Assembly (NCBI GenBank): GCA_963668625.2
Contig: CAXXKA010000008.1
Coordinates: 640,001-704,000 of the forward strand
DNA from: an uncultured candidate division Zixibacteria bacterium
Lineage (GTDB): Bacteria > Zixibacteria > MSB-5A5 > UBA10806 > 4484-95
Direction: 5' to 3'
DNA: 64,000 nt
Each line of letters starts with the position of its first letter. Positions within the stretch are counted from its first letter, which is position 1. The notes under the pieces were generated by a model. It did no database searches. It saw only the letters and a program-made list of their open reading frames with translations, and was not told the DNA's origin. Positions 37,198 through 60,464 of the stretch are shown piece after piece. A program made the position numbers and the translations under genes.

Positions 37198-37236
37198 TTG
37201 ATTAGGTTCAGCTATTATTTTTCAGGGGGGAAGTTA

Positions 37237-38162: not shown

Positions 38163-38343
38163 TAATTCTATAATAAATAACTTGGCCTGAAAGTCAATAC
38201 TGATTATATAAAACAAGGATTTTTAGCTTAAGTATTAGATGTTCGTTTTGGCTTAAAATCTTGGATTAGTTTAAAGTTTAGAAATTTGTCATATAATTTT
38301 AAGATTATCTAGTGGAATTTAATCTTGGAGGTGTAAGTGAGTA
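38163..38343 (+). repeat. 181-bp leader duplicated at 39845-40025
   Basis: taattctataataaataacttggcc...ggaggtgtaagtgagta; only 2 differences seen. Confidence 0.92.
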
Positions 38344-39560
38344 CGGGAATAATAAAATTTAACCGGCTACTTATTAGCATAATAGTGATATTGCTAGTGC
38401 CTACCTGTTATGCTCAGGTTATTTCGATCGAGGAATACCTGAATTCGGCAATGGCTGATAAGCAGTCTGGGTTAAAATACTCAAAGGACTTTGATGGTAA
38501 TTATTATTCAACATTTGTTACAAGAGAATATGTTGCTATTCGAGAGCAAAGTCTTTACCCCAAAAATGTGGATAAAGGCCAAATGGAAAACATTTACAAA
38601 CCACATAAAATAAGCTTCCTATCAGGGGAGAATAAACTCGCCGAATTAGATTTAAATGGTGAAAACTACATGGTTAAAGGAGTTATTAAATCAGAAGATG
38701 AGGATTTATTCATATATACTTCCAGGGTAGATGGAAAATACTGTTCTAGTATTCGTAAACTTGACGGCAGTTTGATTAGCATCCTAAATTGCCCGCCCTT
38801 TGTTACATGTTCTCCGGGGGGTGTATATTATTATAACTCTCGTGCCAATGACGGATTGAGTATTTACGACGAGTATGGTAATTTTATTTTTGCTATCCCA
38901 TGTATTGGGAGTTATTCTGCTAAAGCAGTATCAGATTCTCTAATTTTAGTTTTGGATGCAAACAGTTTATCGATGTGGGATATTTCCTATAAGAGTGTCA
39001 TTTGGAAAACTGAAATTCCATCACCATCATTTAAGCTTTCAGGCAATTCCATTATCAAATTCTCATTACTTCACAATATTATTGCAGTAAATGGATTGTA
39101 TGGATGTTACTGTTTTGATTTTAACGGTAATTTCTTGTGGCAAAAAGAATATGATTCCAATCAGGAACGACTGCAAATGTTAGGTATTTCTTCATTTAGC
39201 GGTGAATTAGTCACCATCAGGCAAGATTACAATCTAAAAAACTCAATTATTGAGTTTTTTACTGTGGATGGGAAATTAAGAACAAATAAAAAAATGAATT
39301 GGATTAATTCGCAAAATGCGTTTCGGGAATGGGATAAAGACCTTTTAATATTTGAGGATATCATTATGGTTCCTTGCATTTCAGGGAATTATAATACTCG
39401 AGACTATTACACAAGTATAATAACCTTTGAAAATGATGAACCCCAAATTACCAATATTGCGGGCTTCTGGTATTTTCTTGAATCTAAAACAGGAGAAACT
39501 CATATAGTTGGCTTTTCCCCAGATGATAATAAGATAAAATCATTTAAAATCGTACTATAG
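38337..39560 (+). CDS. Secreted hypothetical protein, probable beta-propeller (paralog A)
   Basis: GGAGG RBS + GTG, signal peptide CYA|QVISIEE, beta-rich sequence with CSPGG.YYY and DFNGNFLW. Confidence 0.75.
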   Translation: MSTGIIKFNRLLISIIVILLVPTCYAQVISIEEYLNSAMADKQSGLKYSKDFDGNYYSTFVTREYVAIREQSLYPKNVDKGQMENIYKPHKISFLSGENKLAELDLNGENYMVKGVIKSEDEDLFIYTSRVDGKYCSSIRKLDGSLISILNCPPFVTCSPGGVYYYNSRANDGLSIYDEYGNFIFAIPCIGSYSAKAVSDSLILVLDANSLSMWDISYKSVIWKTEIPSPSFKLSGNSIIKFSLLHNIIAVNGLYGCYCFDFNGNFLWQKEYDSNQERLQMLGISSFSGELVTIRQDYNLKNSIIEFFTVDGKLRTNKKMNWINSQNAFREWDKDLLIFEDIIMVPCISGNYNTRDYYTSIITFENDEPQITNIAGFWYFLESKTGETHIVGFSPDDNKIKSFKIVL

Positions 39561-39611
39561 AAAGAGTAATAAGTTATGAAACATAATAATGCATTGACAC
39601 TGATCTTTCAT

Positions 39612-39709
39612 CTCGTTGCGAAGCGCTGCTTCGCAACGTGGCTTGTTTGCCGGCAGAATGCGCATTCTACATGATTCAAGAAGGTTTCCAAGCAGCGCTT
39701 GGAAACCAG
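39612..39709. repeat. REPIN-like triple-hairpin element, copy A
   Basis: CGTTGCGAAGC-gct-GCTTCGCAACG ... AGAATGCGCATTCT ... GGTTTCCAAGC-agc-GCTTGGAAACC; similarity to copy B extends to about 39780. Confidence 0.85.
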
Positions 39710-39831
39710 AAAACCAAGCCTAACATCGGCAGGATATGTCAGGATGAATGATACGCTGAATAAAATAATTATATCGGAAAATATTTCTCATTAACAATTC
39801 CAAGGAGAAATTTAAAATTTAACGAAAAACA

Positions 39832-39844
39832 CCGGACACTAGTG
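39832..39844. mobile_element. Solo IS4-type terminal inverted repeat
   Basis: CCGGACACTAGTG is identical to the IS4 right end at 52831-52843. Confidence 0.7.
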
Positions 39845-40025
39845 TAATTCTATAATAAATAACTTGGCCTGAAAGTCAATACTGATTATATAAAACAAGG
39901 ATTTTTAGCTTAAGTATTAGATGTTCGTTTTGGCTTAAAATCTTGGATTAGTTTAAAGTTTAGAAATTTGTCATATAATTTTAAGATTATCTAGTGGAAT
40001 TTAATACTGGAGGTGTAAGTGAGTA
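39845..40025 (+). repeat. 181-bp leader, copy 2
   Basis: Near-identical to 38163-38343, with the same 1682-bp offset as the two ORF starts. Confidence 0.92.
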
Positions 40026-41239
40026 TGAAAAGAAGAATTCGATGTTGGGTACTGATTTGTTTTACATTGATATTGCTAGTACCAGCATGCTATGCCCAAG
40101 TTATATCAATTGAGGAATTTATTCAGTCAGCTATGGCTGATAAGCAGTTAGAGTTAAATTATGCGATCAATACAGAAGGGGTTTTTTACGCTGCTATTTC
40201 AACTGATAACTACATTATCTTTGAAGAAGCCAAATTATACTCTCGAACATCTCAGGCTCATGGTGATGTAAGGATCAGCAAACCCCATAAGATTCATATT
40301 TTATCAACAGAAAACAGTATGACTGAATTTAATCTAAATGGAGAAAACTATATCGTTCAAGGATTATTTACAGCAGATGACGAAGACTACTTTATTTACT
40401 CTGCTAAAATGAATGATAATTTTGGGGCGCAATTATATTCAATTGATGGTATTTTTATTCGTACATTAAATTGCCCTGCAAATGTAAAGTGTTCTCCAGG
40501 TGGTAAGTATTATTATGAAGAACGCGGACAGATGGGATTTGGTATATATGATGAGCTTGGTAACTTTAAATTCAATATAAACTGTTTGGGGGAGTTTTTC
40601 TCTAAGGCAGTATCTGACTCATATCTCCTTGTTTTAGATGCTAAATCCCTAGCATTGTGGGATATTAATTCAAAGCGTATAGTATGGAAATCTGATATCC
40701 CAAACACTTCATATAAAATCTCAGGATTATCGATTATTTCTTTCTCTGAACAACATGATTTAATATTATTCAATGCTTATGACGGTTGTTATTGCTTTAA
40801 TTTCCATGGTGATTTTTTGTGGTTTAAGGATATTGATAGAAACTATAGCCGGTTTCAAACGTTTGGAATATCTGAGTCAAATGGTGAGATTATGGTTCTT
40901 ATAGCAAACAGCGCTATAATGGACTTGGAACTTAACATCTTTGACAAGAATGGCAATCTGAACAAACAAATCCCCTTACAAGTTCAAAATTCTCAAGAAC
41001 TACTAGGAGCTTGGGATTCTGAATTAATGGTTTATGATGATTATATTGTTATACCCTATATTACCGGTCACCAAAATGATCGGAAGTGTTATTCAAGTAT
41101 TCTGGCATTGAGTGATAATCAACTATCAATATATAATATTTATGGTTTTTGGTATTTACTAAAGATCAATCAAAATCAATTGTGTTTTATCGGCTATGAA
41201 TCTAATCAAGAATCCATAAAATCTTATGGCATTCGATAA
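40019..41239 (+). CDS. Secreted hypothetical protein, probable beta-propeller (paralog B)
   Basis: Colinear with 38337-39560 (QVISIEE, SAMADKQ, KPHKI, LNGENY, LNCP..V.CSPGG, KAVSD, GCYCF, GFWY) but heavily diverged. Confidence 0.75.
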   Translation: MSMKRRIRCWVLICFTLILLVPACYAQVISIEEFIQSAMADKQLELNYAINTEGVFYAAISTDNYIIFEEAKLYSRTSQAHGDVRISKPHKIHILSTENSMTEFNLNGENYIVQGLFTADDEDYFIYSAKMNDNFGAQLYSIDGIFIRTLNCPANVKCSPGGKYYYEERGQMGFGIYDELGNFKFNINCLGEFFSKAVSDSYLLVLDAKSLALWDINSKRIVWKSDIPNTSYKISGLSIISFSEQHDLILFNAYDGCYCFNFHGDFLWFKDIDRNYSRFQTFGISESNGEIMVLIANSAIMDLELNIFDKNGNLNKQIPLQVQNSQELLGAWDSELMVYDDYIVIPYITGHQNDRKCYSSILALSDNQLSIYNIYGFWYLLKINQNQLCFIGYESNQESIKSYGIR

Positions 41240-41362
41240 ACAGGTAACCCACCAGTATGGTAGGCAAGCTAAAGCCTCACAGCCATATATAATTGAGCAC
41301 TAAACTAAATACAGGCTAATCCTTAATTATTGAAAGACAAGTAGCGGAGCAGGGACTTAAAC
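41238..41362 (+). repeat. Direct repeat copy 2, ending in a reverse-strand tRNA 3'-end-like fragment
   Basis: Matches 37325-37449; reverse complement of 41341-41369 is GTC-CGGGG-TTTAAGT-CCCTG-CTCCGCT-AC. Confidence 0.85.
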
Positions 41363-41365
41363 CCC

Positions 41366-41412
41366 GGACTTCGTCCGCCCAGCGACTCATGCAAATGGCT
41401 TTTTGAACAACC
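41366..41412. repeat. MITE right-end fragment shared with 53765-53811
   Basis: ggacttcgtccgcccagcgactcatgcaaatggctttt..aacaacc is present at both loci. Confidence 0.8.
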
Positions 41413-42062
41413 CCCTAAGGAGAAGACACCTGGGACACGTACGATTATACAGAGCCTTACCGATCCTAACAGCGGTTACATGTGTCGTGACCGCAAGGGC
41501 GAAGGTTTTTGCTATCTTGATCATGTTACCACCGACAGTAAACAGAATATAATAACGGATGTTTATGTAACACCCGGTAATGTACACGATTCGGTTCCTT
41601 ATTTAAAGAGGTTGGATTATCAGATAGAAAAGTTCAATTTTGGTGTTGGTGGCGTTGGTCTGGATGCCGGTTACAGCACGACTCCTATTTGTAAGGGGCT
41701 TGCTGATCATCAGATATTCGGTGTGATTCAGTATGCTAGAGTACGTTGTAAGGGGCTTAAGTATCAGAAGCGTCATTTTAAATATAATTCTACGAAAGAT
41801 GTTTATATTTGTCCGGAGGGTCATGAGCTTTGTTAGAGGTATTAAAAAGGTCACCGAACAGTGTTTGATGACTGCCATTGCCATGAACATAAAGAAGATA
41901 GCCTGTTGTTTTCATTATGTTATCTATTATTGGTTGAAAACTCGGTTAAATCCGGCGTTTTGATTTCAACAACTCGATTCTACGCAATCTAAATTAACAA
42001 TCCTTTAAAATATTACAAAAACAAAAGGGAGTCTCGAAAAACTCCCTTTTGCCATCAGTCTG
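41413..42062 (+). pseudogene. IS1182-family transposase remnant (5'-truncated, internally deleted) with right end
   Basis: SLTDPNSGYM..GFCYLDH..IITDVYVTPGNVHDS..GLDAGY..YICPEG, then a jump to RGIKKVTEQCLMTAIAMNIKKIA; ends ...gccatcagtctg. Confidence 0.85.
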
Positions 42063-42109: not shown

Positions 42110-45100
42110 CTATTTAACCATAACCATCTTACGAGATTCCGTGAAATCATCGGCGGTAATCTTATAGAAATATATGCCGGTTGCGTATGGTGAGGCATTC
42201 CAGATCACGCTGTGATAACCGGCCGGCATCGCCTGATCCACGAGTGTTTCTACCTTACGTCCGAGTATATCGTAAATCTCCAGCTTAACCGGCGATTGCT
42301 CGGGCAGGTTGAAATTAATCGTGGTTTGAGGATTAAACGGATTGGGGTAGTTTTGCATAAGCTCATAAGTTAGCGGCAAGGCATTTTCGCCATCATCGAT
42401 ATCCGTAGGCTGAGCCGGCAAATAAGCCTCGTTAGAATAATTGCTTTCGGTGTCGCCGTCGTATATGGCGGTAATAACGTAGTAATTTTCACGGGTAGGA
42501 ATACATTCCTCATCCACGAAAGAAAGCTCGGTTATTAAAACGTCATTAACCGGCGTATCCCCGTATTGGGCTGGCTCATCGTTTCTGTATACGTTGTAAC
42601 CGTCCGGAGTTATACCCTCCGGAGCGACCCAACCGAGAATTACCTCGGATTGATTTACCAGTTCGACATCCAGATTGCCGGGAACCGGGTAAGGATTATC
42701 GGCCGTGATTTTAATATCATCGACGAACCATCCCTCCTCGGGAACACTGCCATCCGAGCCGAAACGGAATCGTATGTTAGCTGTTTCATTGGCGTAATCG
42801 CCGAGATCGAAAGTGATTTCCCGCCAGTTGCTCGTGCCCGAGAAAATCGGGGTTTCGGCGCTGAACGGTCCCGGAGTTCCGCCAATCCGTACGAAATATG
42901 GGTATCCGCCAACCGGGAATATCTGCTCCCAGTTTTCGCCGCCATCGATACTGAGCTCAACCAGGCCGCCATCATAAGCGTAGCTGGGATAGCTCGTGCT
43001 GTACTCGGCTCTAATCCACTGCCAGTATTTCAGAAGGCAGTTTTCGTTTAGATTGAGTTCCGACATTTCCAATCCGGCGTCGAGAAGATTGGCGTAGTCG
43101 CCCGATCCCTCATCGCCGCATTTCCAGCTATACTGACCGGACTCCGTATGATTGCGTTGATCGCTCAAATGCCATTGATCCAAGAATCCGCTCGAGATGT
43201 TAGAATGTTCCCAATCGCTCACGCCGCTTTCGAATGATTCGCTCATTCCACCGACAAGCATAGTAAAAGTCATACTGCTAAAATGGCCGTTGGAGGCATC
43301 CACTGAAAGCGTGAAACTAACGTCTTTTGGTATGGGACAATCCTCACTGACCGTTAGCATGCAGGCTGAATTTAAAGAAGCCTGCCCGCCCGGAGCTATT
43401 GGCCCACCGGGAGCGCCGTTGCCGGTAATCGTGATATTAGGATCATTGGTAAACACCAGCCCGTCGAACTCACCCAATTCACTGCTGCCTGAATTAAGAA
43501 TGCTGGGATTGAATTCAATGGTTTCGCCGGGATCGATAATACCGTCGCCGTTACCAGCCATATCATCGATGGTACATGAGACAAACGATGTAACAGGGGC
43601 GTGGGCAACCAGGTTGATCGTCCGTGTCCACGGATCCTCGCTGCCATCGGCGTACATCTCAACCTCTATACCGATATTATGCATATCCGGGCAATTAGGC
43701 GAGATACTAATAGTATAGCTATCCTCGCTCATGCCTGTTTCACCCGGGGCCATATCACCGAAAGAAGCGGTATTATCGATTGTGAATACATACGGATCAT
43801 CGCAGGAGATTAAAGCATAAATGTTATCCGCGTTCTCGCTACCGACATTCTCCAGGGTCATCCACAGCTCGATAGTCTCACCGTAATCCAGTATGCCGTC
43901 ATCATTGCCGCCGAGTTCATCATCGATTTCGTAGTTTTCATATGCAATATAAGGACCTTCAGGAGGAACTACGTCGATAGTAGTTTCATACATATCGAAA
44001 TTATGCGCGGTTGCTACGAGGTTCAGCTCCGTGGTATCATCCAGGCTGCCGATAATATCGATCGTAACTACGCCGGACTCATTGGTGAGGCCCCGGCCAA
44101 TACAAACGCCATTTTGAGATAGGGCGACACGGGCTCCGGAAATAGGATCGTCATCGCTATCGGCTAAGGTTACGGAAAAATCCTCCATACCGATCAGGAT
44201 CACATTGTCGTGACCGGCTGTCATCGGTACCGGCGCGGCCAACCACAGATCTAGTGTCGGATCGCCGAACAGGTTTGAGCAATAATGACACCAGCGGTTT
44301 TGCGCGAAATCTATATATGGTATATTATCCAGCTTGGCGTCGCTCTGGGTTTCGCCAACCCGAGTGATATTCTCATCAAGCATGGCATCGAAAAATTGTC
44401 TGTCGTAATACTGGGATGAGCCGTTGGTGCTGTCAACATCGCCCCAACCGTAGCGGCTGTTAGTTACCAGAATAACCGGGCCGTTCTCGATCGTGGTCCA
44501 GACCTCGGATATGCAATCCTGGCCGTAGCTTCCGTAAGAATCGCGGTTATCGAATGCACCGCAGTAACAGCCCTGCGAGTAAACGAGATAGTAACCATGG
44601 GTAACGCCGTCATTGGTGAAATTGTTATCGTTGATATTGCTATTATACAATTTCATCATGTAGGTATTATTGGCGTGTCCCAGATGGTTTACCAGTCCCA
44701 TACCGGCATTCAATCTCGGTACGAGATCGCCCAATGGGCTCCAGTCGCCGTTTAGATCATACAGCGTATCCTGATCGAAACCATAGCGTGGGAATCCCGC
44801 CGTATGATATCCCCAGGCATCCGATCCACAGCGTATTTCCTCTTTATAGGCTCGTCCCCAAACCTCCCAACCAAGGTCCTCACCGGTCATCAGGATATTG
44901 TTAACATCCTCGGCCACTGGCTGGTATTGGTACAAAATGGTTTTATTGATGAAATTTTCGGCCTCTGTCGGCGAATCTACCGCCATTCTTCCGATATAAA
45001 CCTCGCCGGCTAAATCGGCCTCGTCGGGCTCTCCCCAGCGGTTATCGCCATCTTGGTTCCAGGAGCCGTCCAGCCCGGCAAAATATATATCCGCCGGAAC

Positions 45101-46039
45101 ATCAAACTCATCCTCATAGCCACCTGCGTCATCGTATAAACCGCGATGAGGTACCAGCTCGGTATCGCCGGCCAGGAGCACGTATTCAACCCCGTGATTC
45201 TGGTACTGATCGATAATACAGTTCCTGATCATATCCTGCTGGTCACTACCGGTATATTGGCCGTAAATATCTGAAACCAGCATGATCTCGGTAAGGAAAC
45301 CGGTACGATTCTTATACGCGGCCAATTCCTCGAACGAGCTTTGCAGCGACTCCTCGGTGATAATCAGGTAATCATAATTACCGTCATCATCGACATCCAG
45401 AGAGGTTTGACCGTAGTATGAATTTATCGATTCGGTGTTATCTATATAACCGGTCAATTTCCGGTTGGTTTTACTATCGGTTCTTAAAAACATGCGATAG
45501 GCATCGTTGGCTTTCGCTGATGGCTCGGTTATGATATTAACCTCGATTTGCCTGTAATAATAAAGCTCGCCTGTTTTGGGATAGTACTCGAACGGACAGA
45601 CATTGAAATAAGCGATACCATGGCCGCGGAAAAACTGGGTGCTCAATCCCTGCTCCATTGTCGACGGGTATTTGCTATCGCTTTGGTAAACCGACACTAG
45701 AGGCTCGGTGCGCTCGAATGGTCCGGCGTACCCGATAGGGTATTGCCTGTTGGCCGGCGCGATATCGTAACTGCCCTGGACTTTCACCCTGTCGCCCAGC
45801 ACGTACTCTATCCTGACTGCCTCCTCACCCGCCGGTAGAAGAATAGACATTGCCTGACGGGGAAGCGGCGGTTCACCCGGGTTCGAGATAGTAAGGCATC
45901 CCGGAAGTGTAACACTTGCCAGGTTGTCAGCCTGTTTGATCTCTGGTTGATCGAAGTAAAGGGTTCTGCTAACCTGGCCTGCCGAAACGATGCCGGCCAT
46001 CATGCAGATTAATCCCAAAATAACCATCAGCTTGCGCAT
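42110..46039 (-). CDS. Secreted gingipain-like C25 cysteine peptidase (propeptide, C25, Ig-like, FN3, YPNPFN CTD)
   Basis: PGEPPLP propeptide, DYLIIT, YVLLAGD, IGRM, NHLGH and SQGC catalytic motifs, NLFGDP, QNYPNPFNP CTD. Confidence 0.9.
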   Translation of the reverse strand: MRKLMVILGLICMMAGIVSAGQVSRTLYFDQPEIKQADNLASVTLPGCLTISNPGEPPLPRQAMSILLPAGEEAVRIEYVLGDRVKVQGSYDIAPANRQYPIGYAGPFERTEPLVSVYQSDSKYPSTMEQGLSTQFFRGHGIAYFNVCPFEYYPKTGELYYYRQIEVNIITEPSAKANDAYRMFLRTDSKTNRKLTGYIDNTESINSYYGQTSLDVDDDGNYDYLIITEESLQSSFEELAAYKNRTGFLTEIMLVSDIYGQYTGSDQQDMIRNCIIDQYQNHGVEYVLLAGDTELVPHRGLYDDAGGYEDEFDVPADIYFAGLDGSWNQDGDNRWGEPDEADLAGEVYIGRMAVDSPTEAENFINKTILYQYQPVAEDVNNILMTGEDLGWEVWGRAYKEEIRCGSDAWGYHTAGFPRYGFDQDTLYDLNGDWSPLGDLVPRLNAGMGLVNHLGHANNTYMMKLYNSNINDNNFTNDGVTHGYYLVYSQGCYCGAFDNRDSYGSYGQDCISEVWTTIENGPVILVTNSRYGWGDVDSTNGSSQYYDRQFFDAMLDENITRVGETQSDAKLDNIPYIDFAQNRWCHYCSNLFGDPTLDLWLAAPVPMTAGHDNVILIGMEDFSVTLADSDDDPISGARVALSQNGVCIGRGLTNESGVVTIDIIGSLDDTTELNLVATAHNFDMYETTIDVVPPEGPYIAYENYEIDDELGGNDDGILDYGETIELWMTLENVGSENADNIYALISCDDPYVFTIDNTASFGDMAPGETGMSEDSYTISISPNCPDMHNIGIEVEMYADGSEDPWTRTINLVAHAPVTSFVSCTIDDMAGNGDGIIDPGETIEFNPSILNSGSSELGEFDGLVFTNDPNITITGNGAPGGPIAPGGQASLNSACMLTVSEDCPIPKDVSFTLSVDASNGHFSSMTFTMLVGGMSESFESGVSDWEHSNISSGFLDQWHLSDQRNHTESGQYSWKCGDEGSGDYANLLDAGLEMSELNLNENCLLKYWQWIRAEYSTSYPSYAYDGGLVELSIDGGENWEQIFPVGGYPYFVRIGGTPGPFSAETPIFSGTSNWREITFDLGDYANETANIRFRFGSDGSVPEEGWFVDDIKITADNPYPVPGNLDVELVNQSEVILGWVAPEGITPDGYNVYRNDEPAQYGDTPVNDVLITELSFVDEECIPTRENYYVITAIYDGDTESNYSNEAYLPAQPTDIDDGENALPLTYELMQNYPNPFNPQTTINFNLPEQSPVKLEIYDILGRKVETLVDQAMPAGYHSVIWNASPYATGIYFYKITADDFTESRKMVMVK

Positions 46040-49884: not shown

Positions 49885-51210
49885 CTAATTACCAACTCGT
49901 TTCTGGGCCGGGTAGGTATCGCCATCGCTGTCCAACTCGTAAAGCTCGACTATTTCCCCGTATATATCCCTGACGAATTGAACCCTGTATTTGGCGTAAT
50001 TCTCCTCAGCATATTTAAAAAGATCATTCCCCATAGGAACAAGCTCGTGATAGCCACCTCTGCCCCATGTATAAAATATTCTGTTGCATTTAACGGTGAT
50101 CGTGTCACTTTCGCCATAAACGCCTGCATATTCTAACAAGATTTCGCTATCTATAGTCACCTGGTTCATATCGCTCTCATAGTAAGTCATCGTCCATTCC
50201 AACAGATATCTCGTATCCTCGGCTTCCTCGGATTCGAGCAGATATTTGCATGCCTCAAAGTTGGCAACGATAAAGGCCTTATCGGTTGGAGTCTCAATAT
50301 CCGGTATTATCCCATTAATATAATTTGTTTTGGAGTACGGATTGATATCACTGGTGTACGGTACTTTCATATTGATTCCGAGTTCGGGGAAACTCATATA
50401 TTTAACCGAATGCGCCCCGCCTTTGGTTTTCTGGCCAATAATAGTCGCTTTGCCCAGTTGCTGAAGTTGATATGAGAACGCCTCGGTGGCCGAATATGAA
50501 AAGCCGCTCAGAAGAATATACACCGGAATATCAGTAAGCTTTGGCCCGGCTACGCTCTCCATTGTCCAGACTTCCTCGGTAGTATTGGTCGAACGGGTGT
50601 AAATATCGGTCAGATGCGTCCGCTTGTCGAAAAGGTAACTGCATAACAATATTCCCATATCCGTATCACCGCCTCCGTTCAAGCGAAGGTCAAAAATCAA
50701 GGCATCACAGTTAGCCACGAAATTCATTGCCGCAATCGCCGTTGCTCCGGCGCTCTTCGGATTATTAAAAGTAACGAGTTCGATATAACCGATATTTCCC
50801 GGCAGTATCTCTACTTTATGAAAGCCAAAATTATCCTCGGGGGAACCAAGTTTTGTTTCATGCGCCAGGTCATCGGGTATTTTCTCGTATGGATAAATCT
50901 TAATATGATGATCGTTGGATATCTCGCGCAGGTCCGAGGTCAATTTTGCCGTGAGCTCGGGAATTTCCGTAAGACTATCGTATTCGTACCTTCTATATTT
51001 ACCATTAATGTAATCGGTCATCGAAACAGCTACATCCTCCAAAGGATATAACTCATTAAATACCTTATCTATTTTACTAATAATCGCAGAACGTTTTTGG
51101 TTGCTCAGAATGGTATCGTCGGAGCTATAGTCATTTTGCGATAAAGCCGGAGTGACCAGAACCGAAAATACCAGGATTAGATAGGCTGCTAATTTTAATA
51201 ATCGATACAT
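49885..51210 (-). CDS. Secreted S41-family peptidase
   Basis: Signal peptide; LPGNIGYI, DLRLNGGG, YSATEAF, IIGQKTKG, GIIPDI. Confidence 0.9.
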   Translation of the reverse strand: MYRLLKLAAYLILVFSVLVTPALSQNDYSSDDTILSNQKRSAIISKIDKVFNELYPLEDVAVSMTDYINGKYRRYEYDSLTEIPELTAKLTSDLREISNDHHIKIYPYEKIPDDLAHETKLGSPEDNFGFHKVEILPGNIGYIELVTFNNPKSAGATAIAAMNFVANCDALIFDLRLNGGGDTDMGILLCSYLFDKRTHLTDIYTRSTNTTEEVWTMESVAGPKLTDIPVYILLSGFSYSATEAFSYQLQQLGKATIIGQKTKGGAHSVKYMSFPELGINMKVPYTSDINPYSKTNYINGIIPDIETPTDKAFIVANFEACKYLLESEEAEDTRYLLEWTMTYYESDMNQVTIDSEILLEYAGVYGESDTITVKCNRIFYTWGRGGYHELVPMGNDLFKYAEENYAKYRVQFVRDIYGEIVELYELDSDGDTYPAQKRVGN

Positions 51211-51377
51211 GGTAGTTCACCTTCTCCGTGGTTAAATATTAGTACAAGATTTATATTCATATTTATCTTACGAAAACAGGTTTCCAAAGTAACAAAATAA
51301 TATTAGCTAGAGAAATAATTCTATTTCATGATAATATTATTTCAACTAGCTACGAACTTACGGATTATCTTTCCCTT

Positions 51378-51474
51378 CTCGTTGCGACGCGCCGCTTCGC
51401 AACGTGGCTTCCGTGCAGGAAGAATGCTCATTTACATGACTCATGAAGGTTTCCAAGCAACACTTGGAAACCAG
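51378..51474. repeat. REPIN-like element, copy C (degenerate)
   Basis: ctcgttgcgacgcgccgcttcgcaacgtggctt...ggtttccaagcaacacttggaaaccag. Confidence 0.8.
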
Positions 51475-51577: not shown

Positions 51578-52843
51578 CACTAGTGTCCGGGCTTTGAGGC
51601 TGGCTTGACAGACCTCCTATAATAAGGGTGTAAACGCTAATTATAACACCTTTGTTTACAGGAGGTTAAAAATGCAAGGGAAGGTTACAATACTTCGCCA
51701 GATAACGCAAATGATTTCTCGATACGATTTCCAAAAAGCAGTTTCGACTGGCAAAGGGCGGCATTTCACGGTTTCTTTCGGCTACTGGTCGCACCTGGTG
51801 GCGATGATATTCGGGCAATTATCGGAGCAGCAATCGCTGCGTGATCTGGTCTTGAATCTTTCCCGTCAGGCGCATAGGTTTTACCATCTGGGTATGTCAA
51901 AGATACGCCGTTCGACTTTTTCGGATGCCAACAATCATCGGCCCTCGGCAATATACGAGAACTTGTTTTACATATTATTGAATCGTTACGGTTGTCATTT
52001 TCAAGGCAAAAACCGGAAGCTGGGGAATAAATTATACTCAGTTGATTCGACGGTCATAGATTTGTGTCTGGGGTTATTTTATTGGGCTAAATTCAGAACG
52101 ACCAAGGCCGGTGTCAAGCTTCATGTCAGGTTAAACCATGATGGTTACATCCCTGATTTTGCGGTTGTCACCAATGCCAATATTCATGATTCCAGAGTCA
52201 GGAAGATGTTCAATTTACCGGCTGGCAGTATCGTGACTTTCGACAAAGGCTACAATGACTACAGTCTTTTCAAGTTATTAAATGATAAGGGGATAATCTT
52301 TGTCACGCGGCAGAAGAATAACGCTAAATACAAAGTAATCAAACGGTGTAGAACTAATCGTAAGCAAGGAGTCACCTCCGATCATTGGATTGAATTTACC
52401 GGTTTTTACTCCAAGCAAAAATGTTCGATTAGGCTGAGACGAATCCGTTATATCGATAAAGAAACCGGTAAAGTTTATGTATTCCTGACCAATGATTTCA
52501 AACATGCCGCCTCGACTATTGCCGACATTTATAAGCAGCGCTGGCAGATAGAATTGTTTTTTAAAGCGTTAAAACAGAACCTTGTGATCAAGACTTTCTG
52601 GGGTACCTCCAAGAACGCAGTATATTCCCAGATCTGGGTGGCTTTGATAATCTATTTGTTAATGAGCGCGCTGAAATACAAATACAAAATATCGGCCTCA
52701 GTTGGAAAGTTAATTCAGAGAATCCGGTCATTCGTGTTTGAAAAAGATGATGTCCTGAGATTCCTTAAAGACCAAATACCAATCCCAATACAAATCGCTC
52801 AAACATCTCAAATTAACCTGTCCCTAAAGGCCGGACACTAGTG
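51578..52843 (+). mobile_element. Complete IS4-family insertion sequence (1266 bp)
   Basis: TIR CACTAGTGTCCGG / CCGGACACTAGTG; 9-bp TSD ATATATTAA at 51569-51577 and 52844-52852. Confidence 0.93.
51672..52841 (+). CDS. IS4-family DDE transposase (DUF4372 + DDE_Tnp_1)
   Basis: SLRDL, RSTFSDAN, VDSTVI, KLH, FDKGY, FLTN, YKQRWQIELFFK (YREK); stop codon lies inside the right TIR. Confidence 0.95.
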   Translation: MQGKVTILRQITQMISRYDFQKAVSTGKGRHFTVSFGYWSHLVAMIFGQLSEQQSLRDLVLNLSRQAHRFYHLGMSKIRRSTFSDANNHRPSAIYENLFYILLNRYGCHFQGKNRKLGNKLYSVDSTVIDLCLGLFYWAKFRTTKAGVKLHVRLNHDGYIPDFAVVTNANIHDSRVRKMFNLPAGSIVTFDKGYNDYSLFKLLNDKGIIFVTRQKNNAKYKVIKRCRTNRKQGVTSDHWIEFTGFYSKQKCSIRLRRIRYIDKETGKVYVFLTNDFKHAASTIADIYKQRWQIELFFKALKQNLVIKTFWGTSKNAVYSQIWVALIIYLLMSALKYKYKISASVGKLIQRIRSFVFEKDDVLRFLKDQIPIPIQIAQTSQINLSLKAGH

Positions 52844-53812: not shown

Positions 53813-53898
53813 CCTACGAGGTAAGAACTGATATAAAATAGTGCCGCTATTGAGAGAATCGGTCGTTACTGTTGATCGCCACTGTCCGGCCTTTCCAT

Positions 53899-53996
53899 CT
53901 CGTTGCGAAGCGCTGCTTCGCAACGTGGCTTGTTTGCCTGCAGAATGCGCATTCTACATGACTCAAGAAGGTTTCCAGGCAGCGCTTGGAAACCAG
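53899..53996. repeat. REPIN-like element, copy B
   Basis: Nearly identical to 39612-39709; similarity continues to about 54066. Confidence 0.85.
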
Positions 53997-54066
53997 CGAA
54001 CTAAACCTAACATCGGCAGGACATATCAGGATGTATGATACACTGAATATACAATTATATCGAAAA

Positions 54067-54633
54067 TTATCGCTTGGTATAAACAGCCTTGCCCATAACT
54101 TGCCAGGTTTTACCGCCATCGAATGAATGCTCGAATAACCAATCGAACTTGTTTTCGGTCTGGTTAAAAATGGTCACCCGTGAATGAAGTTTCTGTCCGG
54201 CCCAGACCTCTTTGCCGGAGGTTACCATCTTACCCTCCTGGTATTTGCCGGTATAAAATGACATCTTACCGCCCATCGAATCGATCCAGAGATTTTGCCA
54301 CTCGTTTGTATCACGGTCATAACTTATCATCATGAAACCATCGAAAGGCATCCCCAGCATTTCGCCCTTAAACCGGCTCTCGATCGCACAACCATCCAGG
54401 GTGTATTTATACATAGCGCTACCCCGGGTTTTATTCCATTTCTCGGGATTTTCCATATCGGCCCATTCCATATCGCAATCCCATTGCCCCTCCATGTAAG
54501 CCAGTTCTTTCATCTGAGCGGGCGCTCCCATCTCCATTGCCGCCATCTCATTTTGCTCGTGGTTATCACCGATTGCCGCTGAGAAGCTGATTCCTGCGAT
54601 TAAAACCAGTGTTAAGATACTTCTGATGACCAT
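54067..54633 (-). CDS. Secreted DUF1579 family protein
   Basis: Signal peptide; L..MEGQW, GMPFDG, YD...WQNLWIDSMG, S.DGGKTW...YTK. Confidence 0.8.
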   Translation of the reverse strand: MVIRSILTLVLIAGISFSAAIGDNHEQNEMAAMEMGAPAQMKELAYMEGQWDCDMEWADMENPEKWNKTRGSAMYKYTLDGCAIESRFKGEMLGMPFDGFMMISYDRDTNEWQNLWIDSMGGKMSFYTGKYQEGKMVTSGKEVWAGQKLHSRVTIFNQTENKFDWLFEHSFDGGKTWQVMGKAVYTKR

Positions 54634-54709: not shown

Positions 54710-54914
54710 CACCGGGGTTTCCTAAAAAATTCTATTTTCTTGACTAAATACCCATAAAATGGTTAGATAAAAAACCTATGAATACCATATACGAATATTT
54801 CAATTACCCCGTAGACTCGATCAGCAGGATCGCCAATATAGCATGCCCCAAGACGGCTGTAAATAGAATAAACTATGATACATTTAAAATAATAACAAAA
54901 AGAAAGAGGTACTC

Positions 54915-56141
54915 ATGAAACAAAAGATCCTTTATGTGATACTTTTGGTGATTCTACTCTCGTTGGGCTCTTTCGGTCAGGAGACCACCCCGGTTGCGGA
55001 TGAAAGCTCTCCGGCCGAGATGATCCAGGTTCCGACCGTAGCCCCGCCGGGTGAGGTGATCGCCAAAGACACACCTAATGATGCAGGCTCATCGATAACT
55101 ATCAGGTGGGAACGCTCGCCCGATGATATCGCTGAGACCCCCGGGTTTGCAGGTTACGCGATCCTTCGCGGGGAATCTCCCGAGGGGCCGTTCGAGCAGC
55201 TCGGCGAGACCACCGCCGGTGGGGATGAGGATAACCATGACTACAAAACCTATCTCGACAACAACGCTTTGGATGGCGTGAAATACTGGTACGCTATAGA
55301 TGCCAGAGCCGGGGATCAGATTGCCCGGGCAATCACGAGCACGCCGGTGACATCCTCACAACAGTGGTTCAATTTCGGCCTGACAAACATGTTTATCGCC
55401 ACCGCGTTTCTTATCTCGGCGATACTGTTCTATATCACCAGCGCCAAATCGGGCAAGAAACTGTACATCCGTAAAATAGCCGGTTTGGAGGCCGTCGATG
55501 AGGCGGTTGGCCGTGCCACCGAGATGGGCAAGAAAATATTTTTCATACCGGGCACTCAGGATATGGACAACGTCCAAACTATCGCAGGAGTGACTATTCT
55601 CGGCCGTGTTGCGCAGAAAACAGCCGAGTACGAAGCTCGTATCGATGTGCCCGTGTCGCGTTCGCTGGTGATGGTAACCGCGCGAGAGGTGGTTAAAGAG
55701 GCGTATCTCAACGCCGGCCGCCCCGATGCTTACTCCGATGACATGGTGTACTATCTCACCGATGACCAGTTCGGTTACGCCGCCGGTATCGATGGCTTGA
55801 TCGTTCGCCAGAAACCGGCCACCATCTTCTATCAGGGGGCGTTCTACGCCGAATCGTTGATTCTGGCCGAGACCGGCAACTCTATCGGCGCTATCCAAAT
55901 CGCCGGAACGGCTATGCCTTCGCAATTGCCGTTTTTCGTGGCCGCCTGCGATTACACCCTGATCGGTGAGGAGCTGTTCGCCGCCAGCGCATATCTCTCG
56001 CGCGAACCCAAGCTCCTCGGCTCCCTGAAGGGTCAGGATCTGGGTAAGCTCGCAATCATTACCGCGTTATTGTTGGGATTCGTAATCCAGGTGTTGGGAA
56101 TATTCAATTTCGCAACCCTATTCGATGTGTCGGGAGGTTAG
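54915..56141 (+). CDS. Signal peptide + FN3-like + TM + DUF6754-domain protein
   Basis: DTPNDAG..ITIRW..GYAILR..YWY; IRKIAGLEAVDEAVGRATEMG, AESLILAE.G, QIAG, DYTLIGEELFAASAYLS, GSLKGQD. Confidence 0.8.
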   Translation: MKQKILYVILLVILLSLGSFGQETTPVADESSPAEMIQVPTVAPPGEVIAKDTPNDAGSSITIRWERSPDDIAETPGFAGYAILRGESPEGPFEQLGETTAGGDEDNHDYKTYLDNNALDGVKYWYAIDARAGDQIARAITSTPVTSSQQWFNFGLTNMFIATAFLISAILFYITSAKSGKKLYIRKIAGLEAVDEAVGRATEMGKKIFFIPGTQDMDNVQTIAGVTILGRVAQKTAEYEARIDVPVSRSLVMVTAREVVKEAYLNAGRPDAYSDDMVYYLTDDQFGYAAGIDGLIVRQKPATIFYQGAFYAESLILAETGNSIGAIQIAGTAMPSQLPFFVAACDYTLIGEELFAASAYLSREPKLLGSLKGQDLGKLAIITALLLGFVIQVLGIFNFATLFDVSGG

Positions 56142-56144
56142 GCT

Positions 56145-56798
56145 ATGAAACGTGAAGTTCCATTACTGATTGCCGGTATAGTCGGATCGGTGCTGGTTAT
56201 ACAGTACTTCATCCCGCATACCCCGTTCGGCACATTAAACGATGTTTTCTCGGACTGGTTCTCTATCATCCAGGCAACCGCTATCTGGCTGGGCGCGCTC
56301 AACCTCATAAAGGTTGCCGGTGATAAAGTGTATAAACGTCAGAAAGACTGGCCATACTCGTTAATAGTAATTGTCTGTTTCTTGATAATGGTCATCGTCG
56401 GCTTGTTCTTCTCCGGCGGCACTCGTTTCCTTGATCCGGGTACGCCGTTTTCGACATTATACGATTATGTCTACTCACCACTCGTGTCAATGATGTTCGC
56501 TTTGCTGGCGTTCTTCGTCGGTTCGGCCTCGTACCGGGCATTCAGGGCGCGCAATAAGGAGGCTACCGTACTGCTGGTGGCGGCATTCCTCGTGATGCTC
56601 GGCCGTGTGCCGCTTGGCGATATGCTGACAGGCTGGCTGCCTCATTCTCTGCAAATGTCCAACGTGGCGAGCTGGATTATGAACGTACCCAACCTTGCCG
56701 GTCAGAGAGCTATCATGATCGGTATCTCGCTGGGTATCGTCTCCACTGCGCTGCGCATGATACTTGGCATCGAACGCTCATACCTGGGAGGTGAATAA
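56145..56798 (+). CDS. Uncharacterised polytopic membrane protein (DUF6754 operon gene 2)
   Basis: 5-6 TM; FALLAFFVGSASYRAFRARN.EA, MLGRVP, WIMNVPN.AGQRAI. Confidence 0.8.
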   Translation: MKREVPLLIAGIVGSVLVIQYFIPHTPFGTLNDVFSDWFSIIQATAIWLGALNLIKVAGDKVYKRQKDWPYSLIVIVCFLIMVIVGLFFSGGTRFLDPGTPFSTLYDYVYSPLVSMMFALLAFFVGSASYRAFRARNKEATVLLVAAFLVMLGRVPLGDMLTGWLPHSLQMSNVASWIMNVPNLAGQRAIMIGISLGIVSTALRMILGIERSYLGGE

Positions 56799-57652
56799 TG
56801 GCTAACGGTGTGAAAAACTTCCTGGAAAGAATGATGGGAATAGACCGTCGGGTGATCTTCCTGCTTATTTTCATTGCGCTGTCTATCCCGATGTTTATCA
56901 AGTTCGATATGGAAATCCCGACCTCGCCCGAGGTAGAACTGTTGGTTGATACCATGGAGAAACTGCCAGACGGCGCCAAGGTGATGGTCTCGCTTGACTA
57001 CGACCCCAGCTCCGAACCGGAGCTTCAACCGATGGCAGAGACATTCCTTCAATATGCTTTAAAGCGCAATTTCAAGGTTATCTGTATCGGTTTATGGCCA
57101 CAGGGTTCCATACAAGCCGAACGTGCCCGTCGAGTAGCCGAGGAAGTATCGGGTCGGCCGTTCGAGTACGGCGTTGATTATATCAACCTCGGTTACCAGG
57201 CAGGTAACGAGCTGGTTATTCAGCGCATGGGCTCCTCCATACCGGCGATGTTTCCCAACGATAATTTCGGCACGCCCGTCGATCAATTCCCGATAATGCA
57301 GGGCGTGAAGAATTTCTCGAACATCGATTACGTGTTCAATCTCTCAGCCGGTTATCCCGGCACGATTGAGTGGGTACTGTTCGCGGCCGATAAATTCGGC
57401 GCGATAGTCGGCGCGGGTAATACCGCCGTGCAGGCCCCCTCGGTATATCCTTACCTCGGCAAGCAACTTCGTGGGCTGGCCGGTGGCATGAAAGGCGGCG
57501 CCGAATTCGAGATACTTACCGAGTTCCCCGGCCGGGCCGTAAAATACATGGTCGGCCAGACATTCGCCCATACCGTGATCGTACTGTTTATCATCGTCGC
57601 GAATATTGCCTTCTTTGCCACACGCGGTAATAAGAAGGGAGGCGTACTATGA
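56798..57652 (+). CDS. Uncharacterised membrane protein: TM + soluble domain + TM (operon gene 3)
   Basis: DRRVIFLL; DYDPS...EL.PM; YGVDYINLGY.AG; GGMKGGAEFE; TAATG coupling to gene 2. Confidence 0.8.
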   Translation: MANGVKNFLERMMGIDRRVIFLLIFIALSIPMFIKFDMEIPTSPEVELLVDTMEKLPDGAKVMVSLDYDPSSEPELQPMAETFLQYALKRNFKVICIGLWPQGSIQAERARRVAEEVSGRPFEYGVDYINLGYQAGNELVIQRMGSSIPAMFPNDNFGTPVDQFPIMQGVKNFSNIDYVFNLSAGYPGTIEWVLFAADKFGAIVGAGNTAVQAPSVYPYLGKQLRGLAGGMKGGAEFEILTEFPGRAVKYMVGQTFAHTVIVLFIIVANIAFFATRGNKKGGVL

Positions 57653-58344
57653 TTACTTTCTGGACATGGATCGGCGCTATCCTGACACTGGGTATACTTT
57701 CGTTCTTGTACAAGGATAACCCGTTTTACAAAGTCTCCGAGGCTATTTTCATGGGGATATCCGCCGGCTACTGGTTCGTTTCGCTGTGGTTCCAGTCGTT
57801 CACCCCGAAACTTCTCGATAACCTCGGCATACGCAAAATGCTGGGCGCGGATGTTGATAACGGCGCATTGCAGAACGTTTTTAGCGGCCACTACGATGAA
57901 CGTATCTGGTATGTCGTAGCGGGTATACTGGCAATCATGATGTTGTGTCGCTTGATCCCCAAAGTCGGCTGGATATCGCGCTGGCCGCTGGCGTTTATCG
58001 TGGGTACGACCTCCGGCGTGTATCTCACCCGTTACCTGGCATCCAACGCGCTGGCACAGATCAACAACACGCTGAAAGTGTTCATCCCGCTTGGCGCGGA
58101 GGGCTTTTTAAGCTGGGCCAACCTGAACTACTTCCTGATTCTGATAGGTGTGCTCACGGGCCTGATATATTTCTATTTCTCCAAGGAGCACAAGGGAATA
58201 ACAGGTGGAGCGGCCCGTATCGGCATTTATTTCCTGATGGTGACATTCGGCGCGTCATTTGGCTACACGGTGATGTCGCGTATGTCGCTACTGATAGGCC
58301 GGCTCGATTTCCTATACAGCGACTGGCTGCATCTGATAAAGTAA
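57649..58344 (+). CDS. Uncharacterised polytopic membrane protein (operon gene 4)
   Basis: About 6 TM; SFLYKDNPFYK..E.IFMG.SAGY, SRWPLA, YFYFS, LMVTFGASFGYTVMSRMSLLIGR; ATGA coupling to gene 3. Confidence 0.8.
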   Translation: MITFWTWIGAILTLGILSFLYKDNPFYKVSEAIFMGISAGYWFVSLWFQSFTPKLLDNLGIRKMLGADVDNGALQNVFSGHYDERIWYVVAGILAIMMLCRLIPKVGWISRWPLAFIVGTTSGVYLTRYLASNALAQINNTLKVFIPLGAEGFLSWANLNYFLILIGVLTGLIYFYFSKEHKGITGGAARIGIYFLMVTFGASFGYTVMSRMSLLIGRLDFLYSDWLHLIK

Positions 58345-58350
58345 AACGAT

Positions 58351-58389
58351 TCAACACGAAGGTGCCGGGCAAAAAGCTCGGCGCCTTTT
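58351..58389 (+). terminator. Rho-independent terminator of the DUF6754 operon
   Basis: aaGGTGCCGGGC-aaaaa-GCTCGGCGCC-TTTT. Confidence 0.75.
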
Positions 58390-58601: not shown

Positions 58602-60464
58602 ATGACCGAACCAAAAACCTGCAAATACGATGGCTGCAACGAGCCGGTAAACTCCCCTCACGATGAGGAATTCTGCGTTTTCCATGCATCCGTGGAGAAC
58701 AAGGGGATTAGTGTTGAGGAGTTTAATAATAAGATATTTGAGAGAATTGATGATATTTTTAAACATAATAAACATGAGCAAAATGATAAGGATAAGAAGT
58801 ATTTTGATTTTGAAGGTTTTATATTCCCCGGCAATATAGATTTTGGTGATTATGAAAGGATATATAATAGTAAATTGAATTTTAATCACCATGCTTATTT
58901 CACGAATGCCCAATTTTCAGGAGATGCTTCTTTCATAAATGTTCAATTTTCAGAAGATGCTGATTTCTTGGGTGCCATTTTTTTAAAACGTGTTTATTTC
59001 ATAGGTGACATATTTTCAGGAAATTCTTATTTCATAAATGCCCAATTTTCACGAGATGCTATTTTTAGGAATGCCCAATTTTCAAGAGATGCTGATTTCA
59101 CGAATGCCCAATTTTCAGGAGATGCTTATTTCAAGAATGCCCAATTTTCAGGAGATGCTTCTTTCAGTGATGCCCAATTTTCAGGAGATGCTGATTTCAT
59201 GAATGCCCAATTTCCAGGAGATGCTGATTTCAGTAAAGCCCAATTTTCAAAATATGCTTATTTCATAAATGCCCAATTTCCAGGAGATGCTTCTTTCTGG
59301 AATGCCCAGTTTTCAGGAAATGCTTATTTCAGTAATGCCCAATTTTCAGGAGATGCTTATTTTCATCAAACTCATTTTGATGGCACAATCCTGTCTAATG
59401 ACTTAACAATTGAAAAAAAAATTAGTTTTGCTAACATTACCATGTCTGATAAGGCTCGTTTTTATTTAAGAAATCCAATATTTAAACCTGCGGGATATGT
59501 CAGTCCTAAGATAATATTCGATTCTATACAATTTAATCCCTTCGCAGTTTATTTTGGAGATATAAATTCTAATGATAATATCAATGCTTGTTTGCTATTC
59601 CGCTACTGCCAACTAAAAGATGTCTATTTCACAAATAACGATATGTCTCTATTCTCATTTTACAAGAGCTCTTTCGATGAAGCCCGATTTATATCAAGCA
59701 AATGGGGATTAGTTAACGATAGAATCCTATGTTTCCCATTCAAGAGACAGAATATTATCCCCGAAGAGCATTTCTTAAAGCAAGTAAATGAATTAAATGA
59801 TAACGAAGAACAAACTAAGCAACTCAGAAAAGCCTACAAAATAGAGGACTTAAACTCCCCCCTCGATATCGCCTCCCTGTACCGCCGTATGAAAACCGCT
59901 CTGGATAACACCAAAGACTACGAGCAATCCGGCTGGTTCTATTTCAATGAACTCGAGATGAAACGTCAGGCTTTAGAGGATGAGATTGAAACTAGCGAAC
60001 CTAAATGGAAGATCTTCAGGTGGCAACCATTTATATGGTTAAATCAACAACGCAAAAAACTTTTCAGCCGATATATACTCTATTTCTCCTACAAGGTGTT
60101 CACCGGTTTCGGGCAAAAACCAATGTGGTCTTTCTGCTGGTTCATGTTTTTCACGGTGTTTTTTTCATTCATTCATCTACTTACAGGCTTAAGGAATGAG
60201 GCCTCCGGTATTGAGGATATCAAATACTCGTTGTCATCACTATATGGCTCTTTGGCCAACGGTTATTTCTGGAGTGATTTTCTCGACTCATTCATCTACA
60301 CGATATCACGCGTATTACCTGTCAGCTATGTCTCAACATCGCCCTCGGACTGTTACCCTCTAACATCACTGGGGAAAATAGCCTCGGTATTCAACTCGGT
60401 AATACTTATCATTCTGATAATCTTCATCGGCATAGGTCTCAAACGCCATTTCCGGAGATTTTGA
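58602..60464 (+). CDS. Pentapeptide-repeat membrane protein
   Basis: N-terminal C..C..CxxH, about 15 11-aa repeats (DAxFxNAQFSG), YRRMK..GWFY..E.EMKR, two C-terminal TM segments. Confidence 0.85.
   Translation: MTEPKTCKYDGCNEPVNSPHDEEFCVFHASVENKGISVEEFNNKIFERIDDIFKHNKHEQNDKDKKYFDFEGFIFPGNIDFGDYERIYNSKLNFNHHAYFTNAQFSGDASFINVQFSEDADFLGAIFLKRVYFIGDIFSGNSYFINAQFSRDAIFRNAQFSRDADFTNAQFSGDAYFKNAQFSGDASFSDAQFSGDADFMNAQFPGDADFSKAQFSKYAYFINAQFPGDASFWNAQFSGNAYFSNAQFSGDAYFHQTHFDGTILSNDLTIEKKISFANITMSDKARFYLRNPIFKPAGYVSPKIIFDSIQFNPFAVYFGDINSNDNINACLLFRYCQLKDVYFTNNDMSLFSFYKSSFDEARFISSKWGLVNDRILCFPFKRQNIIPEEHFLKQVNELNDNEEQTKQLRKAYKIEDLNSPLDIASLYRRMKTALDNTKDYEQSGWFYFNELEMKRQALEDEIETSEPKWKIFRWQPFIWLNQQRKKLFSRYILYFSYKVFTGFGQKPMWSFCWFMFFTVFFSFIHLLTGLRNEASGIEDIKYSLSSLYGSLANGYFWSDFLDSFIYTISRVLPVSYVSTSPSDCYPLTSLGKIASVFNSVILIILIIFIGIGLKRHFRRF
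58890..59384 (+). repeat. Coding tandem repeat, about 15 x 33 bp
   Basis: Unit gatgct-nnn-ttc-nnn-aatgcccaattttcagga. Confidence 0.85.

Follow-up and report, generated by a model that had tools for sequence, protein, structure and literature searches.

The four-gene cassette

This report concerns a four-gene membrane-protein cassette (genes 1-4, g1-g2-g3-g4) of an uncultured candidate division Zixibacteria bacterium, located at positions 54915-58389 of the window, that is, the whole 64,000-nt stretch of DNA that was analysed (GCA_963668625.2, contig CAXXKA010000008.1, positions 640,001-704,000 of the forward strand), and its relation to two soluble proteins encoded elsewhere in the same genome, a GlmL/MutL-like ATPase and a 375-residue protein here called p375. 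The features of the cassette, in window coordinates, are as follows.

54905..54909, + strand: Shine-Dalgarno-like AGAGG, 5' of gene 1, seen directly in the sequence
54915..56141, + strand: gene 1 (g1), open reading frame of 408 codons
56145..56798, + strand: gene 2 (g2), open reading frame of 217 codons
56798..57652, + strand: gene 3 (g3), open reading frame of 284 codons
57649..58344, + strand: gene 4 (g4), open reading frame of 231 codons
58358..58389, + strand: terminator-like element found by folding, a 13-bp hairpin (58358-58388) followed by a short U run

The junctions between these genes are, in order, a 3-nt gap, a TAATG overlap and an ATGA overlap, with GGAGG or GGGAGG immediately 5' of each, and the layout of four coupled open reading frames given in a preliminary description of this DNA is confirmed, including all three junction types. 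The cassette is closed, as claimed there, by a strong hairpin (dG -25.7 kcal/mol, z -5.3, with 0 of 200 shuffles equally stable); its U run is short and a simple terminator scan of the + strand did not call it. A promoter scan gave 6 promoter-like sites against 4.7 expected, and no promoter was established for the cassette.

The g1 protein consists of a signal peptide (residues 1-23), a periplasmic N-terminal FN3 domain (about 40-150) that is a beta-sandwich by both sequence profile and fold, a transmembrane (TM) helix (157-177), a cytoplasmic Rossmann-like DUF6754 domain (178-372) and a second TM helix (376-397). It matches the Pfam DUF6754 model (PF20539) over positions 2-256 of 257 with 408.2 bits (E 1.5e-122), the gathering cut-off being 27 bits. 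Six TM helices are predicted for g2, with the N terminus inside, a conserved cytoplasmic S-x(3)-R-x-F-R motif and a C-terminal ER-x-Y-x-G; g3 carries a periplasmic Rossmann-like alpha/beta/alpha domain (residues 38-255) between two TM helices, with both termini inside and with H258 and N269 invariant in the second helix; and g4 has about six TM helices, its N terminus outside, and invariant N24, E31, G201 and F204-G205-x-T207-x-M209-x-R211. Family-wide positive-inside counts are consistent with the predicted topology, which puts the domain of g1 in the cytoplasm and that of g3 outside, and the motifs quoted in the preliminary description (SYRAFRAR, DNPFYK..E, FGYTVMSR, IGEELFAA, KGGAEFE) proved to be invariant or near-invariant columns across 73-94 homologues.

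Family searches placed little beyond DUF6754 itself. No match to g2, g3 or g4 was found in Pfam or NCBIfam, PDB profile searches returned nothing significant for g2 and g4, g4 falls into unnamed clusters of the ESM Atlas with no family, and the homologues of g3 are all unnamed or 'hypothetical' among the 120 matches listed. ABC and AAA families match none of g1-g4, and the cassette is not a P-loop transporter by this measure. The earlier view that no known transporter family is represented thus held in the Pfam, NCBIfam and PDB searches. In addition, the PADLOC anti-phage defence models gave 0 matches for g1-g4, p375 and the ATPase.

Conservation and paralogues of the cassette

When GTDB was scanned with one genome for each species, 607 confirmed relatives were found, and 73 loci were retained, in which gene order was scored with hidden Markov models (HMMs) of g1-g4. 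The four genes form a conserved unit: g2 follows g1, and the order g1-g2-g3-g4 is preserved, in 71 of the 73 loci, across about 15 phylum labels (Zixibacteria, WOR-3, Stahlbacteria, Poribacteria, Fermentibacteria/Aegiribacteria, Cloacimonadota, Phycisphaerae/Planctomycetota, Acidobacteriota, Latescibacterota, Eisenbacteria, Edwardsbacteria, Coatesbacteria, Gemmatimonadota and Armatimonadota among them). Exactly one full cassette is present in 39 loci, and at least 24 hold a second or third cassette, complete or in part. Furthermore, the distance matrices of g1-g4 correlate with r of 0.77-0.85 in 61 complete cassettes (a set without cassette B of the own genome and without any cassette missing one called gene), the maximum in 300 permutations being 0.14. 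The preliminary description placed the cluster in both bacteria and archaea; its presence in bacteria is borne out, and archaea were not seen, all labelled loci being bacterial and archaea not having been searched specifically.

The two exceptions to the g1-g2 order are loci L020 and L069. In L020 (5935-8340, + strand), on one Zixibacteria chromosome, DUF6754 is followed in the same frame by an S49 (SppA-like) peptidase domain, and g2-g4 are absent downstream, a single case in which a protease is fused on the predicted periplasmic side.

The genome that contains the window has six DUF6754 genes, each of them the first gene of a cassette in which g1-g4 keep their order. The other five score 355-409 bits against DUF6754, and the six cassettes share 32-57% identity, which marks them as old paralogues. 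One of the six, cassette B, contains an additional open reading frame between g2 and g3 (L007 6961-7635, + strand), of about 200 residues, with a hydrophobic signal-peptide-like start and no Pfam family. In the phylum as a whole, DUF6754 is found in 151 of 151 sampled genomes, at 2-10 matches each, mostly 4-6 (729 matches overall). The six copies fall into separate old clades of a tree of the DUF6754 domain, and the membrane module of this phylum appears to be split into about five old paralogue lineages. In the same tree the window copy groups with cassettes that adjoin p375 in other genomes, and the cassette most closely related to it is that of L027, which adjoins p375 and shows identities of 86, 82, 73 and 72% for g1-g4. 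By tree and identity, then, the window cassette is the orthologue of the cassette that normally adjoins the ATPase/p375 pair.

The ATPase and p375 as recurrent neighbours

Clustering of the open reading frames that flank the 73 loci, followed by an HMM rescan, identified two recurrent cassette neighbours, a MutL-like (PF13941) protein of about 620 residues and the soluble p375; no P-loop protein is among the recurrent neighbours found by this clustering. Other flanking genes were set aside as unlinked and lineage-specific, namely those for proteins with type IX secretion system (T9SS) tails, AsmA-like proteins, outer-membrane protein barrels and transglutaminase-like proteins, as well as aroK/aroB, acyl-CoA dehydrogenases and DUF4388.

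The larger partner matches the Pfam MutL model over its entire length (E 2.9e-126), which places it in this superfamily, and has about 130 additional C-terminal residues. With 223.6 bits against an equivalog cut-off of 475 and 167.8 bits against a family cut-off of 204, it lies outside NCBIfam GlmL. Six sequences from at least four phyla are 64-81% identical, and the stretches D-x-G-S-T-T-T-K, D-I-G-G-A-T-T-D and G-S-G-G, which we take to be the ASKHA phosphate and adenosine motifs, are invariant among them. Judged by these matches and motifs, the partner is a GlmL/MutL-like ASKHA (actin/Hsp70-fold) ATPase. A PDB profile search with it returned nothing significant.

Identity of this order across phyla is typical of cytoskeletal and chaperone proteins, and it raises the question of a cytoskeleton-like or anchoring system, in which an actin-fold protein would form polymers beneath the membrane, with p375 linking it to modules that hold the wall or outer membrane. 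Such a system would also accommodate one soluble pair for many membrane modules, ectodomains that are protein-binding scaffolds, and the weak match of the ATPase to the Pfam MreB-like C-terminal domain (E 0.0054). However, that match is below threshold and no polymerisation is known for the GlmL/hydantoinase branch, and we consider an anchoring role improbable.

The second partner, p375, has a barrel-sandwich-hybrid N terminus, suggested by sub-threshold matches to RnfC_N (24.7 bits; cut-off 25.6) and NQRA_N (E 0.008), and a weakly KOW-like C terminus. It has no Pfam family and gave nothing significant in a PDB profile search, while in the ESM Atlas it falls into hypothetical clusters labelled 'RnfC barrel-sandwich' or KOW. 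The p375 family has 991 representatives at E <= 1e-30 in a 50%-identity library. The search for it included two called proteins of 995 and 1003 residues; open frames of 995 and 991 residues were considered as ATPase-p375 fusions and rejected, as the ATPase sits in another frame.

A small protein of about 100-160 residues, with one hydrophobic stretch, a lysine/arginine-rich tail and a conserved 'LT.PAI.FLES.KPLSF', is encoded directly 5' of the ATPase gene in at least nine loci and may be a seventh component of the system. The positions of its gene include the following.

L087 1429-1908, + strand: small protein, own genome
L056 9528-9902: small protein
L059 9476-9826: small protein
L088 1854-2261: small protein

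Co-occurrence of the cassette with the pair

Of the 73 loci, 20 contain p375 and 19 the MutL-like gene according to the HMM rescan; if only the 48 loci with 3.5 kb or more of upstream sequence are considered, p375 is present in 13 and the MutL-like gene in 14. The order mutL-p375-g1-g2-g3-g4 recurs under Acidobacteriota, Fermentibacteria, Aegiribacteria, Phycisphaerae, Planctomycetota and Gemmatimonadota labels and in several unlabelled loci. Within the phylum of the window, p375 occurs in 149 of 151 genomes, nearly always as a single copy, and the two genomes without it are 96-97% complete; it lies no more than about 6 kb from a DUF6754 match in at least 48 genomes, a lower bound based on 150 of the 729 DUF6754 matches. 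Among other phyla, p375 and DUF6754 are both found in five genomes and are adjacent in three of them, and p375 is found in five further genomes, in one of these only as a weak match.

Of 101 genomes of Acidobacteriota, 3 contain DUF6754, the same 3 contain p375 and the MutL-like gene, and the genes are contiguous in each. In Planctomycetota (n=121), DUF6754 is present in 34 genomes and p375 in 32; both occur in 31, DUF6754 only in 3, p375 only in 1, and neither in 86. Co-occurrence of this kind in two phyla with patchy distribution is hard to explain without a functional tie, and the cassette is, in our judgement, very probably a functional partner of the ATPase/p375 pair.

It might be thought that the cassette works alone and is associated with the pair through common descent, or because the two hitch-hiked together on one transferred island. 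Most cassettes of multi-copy genomes are indeed not beside the pair, none is in the own genome, and the 13 and 14 occurrences among the 48 loci with sufficient upstream sequence are a minority. Yet presence and absence match almost perfectly (3/3 in Acidobacteriota and 31/35 in Planctomycetota; gaps in assembly may account for the four exceptions in the latter, one of which, genome G352, has its cassettes on a short contig), and adjacency recurs under at least seven phylum labels, so that independent working of the cassette seems a poor account of the data.

Taken together, these observations are best explained if the cassette is not self-contained and is one membrane module of a larger multi-component system with a shared ATPase and p375, a reading to which we assign a probability of roughly 0.45.

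Several points weigh against this reading. The co-occurrence counts are drawn from related, non-independent genomes, and no statistic is attached to them. In one Poribacteria and one WOR-3 genome that were searched whole, the ATPase and p375 are distant from the cassettes, and the other loci with Poribacteria or WOR-3 labels have no p375 or MutL-like gene within their flanks of about 6 kb. In the own genome, about 150 kb separate the window cassette from the ATPase pair, and the small protein is encoded on a different contig. Conserved charged residues within the membrane are few (H258 and N269 of g3, E31 and R101 of g4, K378 of g1), and therefore no obvious path for an ion or substrate can be named. 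In addition, no known transporter fold or family matches either soluble domain or any of the membrane proteins, and the GlmL relatives that have been studied are thought, according to Pfam and NCBIfam descriptions, to be accessory proteins of enzymes, not motors. Finally, all physical contacts among g1-g4, p375 and the ATPase are inferred.

Inside-out conservation and exchangeable ectodomains

Mean pairwise identity falls from 0.65 in the g1 cytoplasmic domain to 0.46 in g2 and g4, 0.40 in the g3 periplasmic domain and 0.29 in the FN3 ectodomain, a gradient that points to a highly conserved cytoplasmic face and a variable periplasmic face. The part of g1 before its first TM helix ranges from 85 to 302 residues in 76 aligned proteins, and 509 DUF6754 proteins are long (at least 715 residues), many of them with several FN3 domains or BamB-like PQQ beta-propellers. 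Some g2 proteins reach about 600 residues (L031 10938-12722, + strand; L048 4167-6017; L075 7153-8949), with an FG-GAP repeat insert in that of L031 and no recognised domain in those of L048 and L075. Sequence comparison thus presents the ectodomains (FN3, BamB-like propeller, FG-GAP) as macromolecule-binding scaffolds that are swappable between relatives.

These features bear on the proposal of the preliminary description, namely a self-contained, ATP-independent secondary transporter with inverted pairs g1/g3 and g2/g4 that imports peptides or amino acids captured by FN3. The four-gene unit has no ATPase gene, g1 and g3 both have the order TM-Rossmann-like domain-TM on opposite sides of the membrane, g2 has its N terminus inside and g4 outside, and genes for C25 and S41 peptidases lie in the window. 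However, hhalign finds no similarity within either pair: the probability is 1.0% for g1/g3 with 6-sequence alignments and 3.1% with 73-94-sequence alignments, and 0.6% and 0.5%, respectively, for g2/g4. Because both soluble domains are Rossmann-like, g1 and g3 may still share a very remote common origin. ATP independence is unlikely because the cassette co-occurs across phyla with a cytoplasmic GlmL-like ASKHA ATPase and p375 and often adjoins them. As for the cargo, nothing favours peptides or amino acids beyond the peptidase genes, which are unlinked to cassettes at the five other sites of the own genome and in other genomes, and the ectodomains are macromolecule-binding scaffolds, not solute-binding folds. 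A secondary transporter of this type is consequently a weak candidate.

A slightly better, though still unlikely, alternative is a membrane-anchored enzyme complex by which a glycan or lipid polymer of the envelope is built or modified; nucleotide-activated precursors would be bound by the Rossmann-like domains on either side of the membrane, with the ASKHA protein as a kinase or activating enzyme, not a motor.

Comparison with known systems

A multi-component system with a shared ATPase and p375 would have parallels in several known machines. ECF transporters share an energising module among membrane units, and here one cytoplasm-facing energising unit, ATPase/p375, would in a similar way serve typically 4-6 cassettes. 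Unlike ECF-type ABC importers, the system has no sequence or fold relation to them and no detected ABC or ECF family, its ATPase is of the ASKHA and not the P-loop type, and each of its membrane units comprises four proteins, with large domains facing both the cytoplasm and the periplasm.

Type VII ABC systems (MacB, LolCDE, FtsEX) pass the energy of cytoplasmic ATP to the periplasm (mechanotransmission), and the TM-periplasmic alpha/beta domain-TM hairpin of g3, the linked cytoplasmic ATPase and the likely outside clients recall them. However, the ATPase is not an ABC protein, and a second hairpin protein, g1, has its domain in the cytoplasm. The Pfam families of FtsX/MacB periplasmic domains gave no match, nor do they occur in the structural neighbours of g3 among the matches listed, and the resemblance would be functional only.

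In the case of Na+-NQR/Rnf, the N terminus of p375 resembles the barrel-sandwich hybrid domain of RnfC/NqrA at the sub-threshold level given above, and g2 and g4 are two six-TM proteins of about 200-230 residues with opposite orientation, just as NqrD and NqrE are small six-TM proteins of opposite orientation. Kinship of g2 and g4 with Rnf/Nqr was rejected, since neither matches PF02508 and hhalign against the RnfA/RnfE-family protein of the own genome gave about 1% and 0.5%. Unlike Rnf/Nqr, the system has no conserved cysteines or cofactor motifs; the own genome also has ordinary Rnf genes.

The ATPase resembles GlmL/MutL of glutamate mutase operons (PF13941, TIGR01319) in matching the full Pfam MutL model, and differs from GlmL in falling below both GlmL cut-offs and in having p375, not mutase genes, as its constant neighbour. 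Similarly, SecDF/RND-type proteins have a large soluble domain between two TM helices beside a bundle of further helices, an architecture to which the cassette can be likened; the differences are that no family or fold matches and that the soluble domains are Rossmann-like, one of them facing the cytoplasm.

Proposed mechanism

The full system, encoded by one operon in single-cassette genomes such as those of L040, L060 and L088, would comprise the small protein (in some lineages), the ATPase followed by p375, and g1-g2-g3-g4. The ATPase and p375 would form a shared energising module, a single-copy pair serving one or several membrane modules. This pair would probably dock on the cytoplasmic Rossmann-like domain of g1, at its invariant acidic face with residues E313, E319, Q328, D346, E352 and E353, and ATP-driven movement would then be passed through the g2/g4 helix bundle to the periplasmic domain of g3 and the FN3 or propeller ectodomain, where a macromolecule of the envelope would be moved or remodelled, either by translocation or by mechanotransmission. 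Each paralogous membrane module would act on a different client. Such an ATP-coupled machine for trans-membrane transport or mechanotransmission is a tentative proposal, held with somewhat less confidence than the modular organisation itself. It is rather doubtful whether it represents a novel type of trans-envelope machine, in which an ASKHA ATPase takes the place of a P-loop NTPase or ion gradient as the source of power and up to ten modules share one ATPase/p375 unit.

Scattered parts in the own genome and surroundings of the cassette

The components of the system are dispersed in the own genome, as follows.

Contig 8, about 545-550 kb: ATPase and p375 genes, separated by a methyltransferase gene
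Contig 8, 695 kb: cassette (that of the window)
Contig 8, 767-778 kb: three cassettes in tandem
Contig 8, 1,147 kb: cassette
Contig 6, 575 kb: cassette
Contig 6: small-protein gene

The methyltransferase gene between those for the ATPase and p375 (L084 8751-9707, - strand) encodes a class I enzyme with a zinc ribbon, and in other genomes, unlike this one, the ATPase and p375 genes are contiguous. From these comparisons it appears that a rearrangement moved the window cassette about 150 kb away from the pair. A dispersed repeat of about 196 bp lies just 5' of the cassette (window 53877-54072) and at window 39606-39784 and 51371-51474; another copy, 92% identical to the window copy, is found beside the p375 gene (L084 8352-8547), and this repeat may be a trace of the event by which cassette and pair became separated. 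About 2 kb upstream of the cassette is a gene for an IS4-like DDE transposase (DDE_Tnp_1 and DUF4372; window 51672-52841, + strand).

Immediately 3' of the cassette, window 58602-60464 (+ strand) encodes a 620-residue pentapeptide-repeat protein with a hydrophobic C-terminal part; no such gene was seen beside cassettes elsewhere. The remainder of the window includes a gene for a sigma-54 activator of 2896 residues (16713-25403, - strand), in which an unusually long array of at least 11 PAS and several GAF domains precedes AAA+ and Fis-type helix-turn-helix domains. It also encodes a gingipain-like C25 peptidase with a T9SS C-terminal sorting domain (42110-46039, - strand), an FG-GAP protein with a T9SS tail (35674-37197, + strand) and an S41 peptidase (49885-51210, - strand), to which the secreted peptidases of the preliminary description correspond. 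A low-GC stretch at 36001-42000 (0.33-0.36 versus about 0.45 elsewhere) contains two open reading frames of 407 and 406 codons without a Pfam family.

Significance

Full-text literature searches found no paper naming DUF6754, PF20539, PF13941 or TIGR01319; a search of the GlmL, ASKHA and glutamate mutase literature gave nothing relevant, and a broader search on Zixibacteria gave nothing relevant among the matches listed. The system as a whole fell outside the known classes in every membership test that could be run. DUF6754 itself, however, already has a Pfam entry as a family of unknown function, and the activity of the system might yet fit a known functional class.

The system is present in all of the 151 sampled genomes of its own phylum and, patchily, in many other phyla, including about a quarter of sampled Planctomycetota (34/121). 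About 26 genes of the 4.3-Mb genome belong to it, that is, six four-gene cassettes and the soluble pair. Since single-operon versions exist in Acidobacteriota, Planctomycetota and Gemmatimonadota, the question is open to tests by heterologous expression. If the link to the ATPase is functional, an ASKHA-driven machine would join the short list of ways in which bacterial processes at or beyond the inner membrane are energised, and the large 'GlmL-like' family, now annotated by analogy to a helper of a B12 enzyme, would gain a purpose. Overall, an ASKHA-driven machine, if true, would be a core function of Zixibacteria and would be widespread in other, mostly uncultured phyla.

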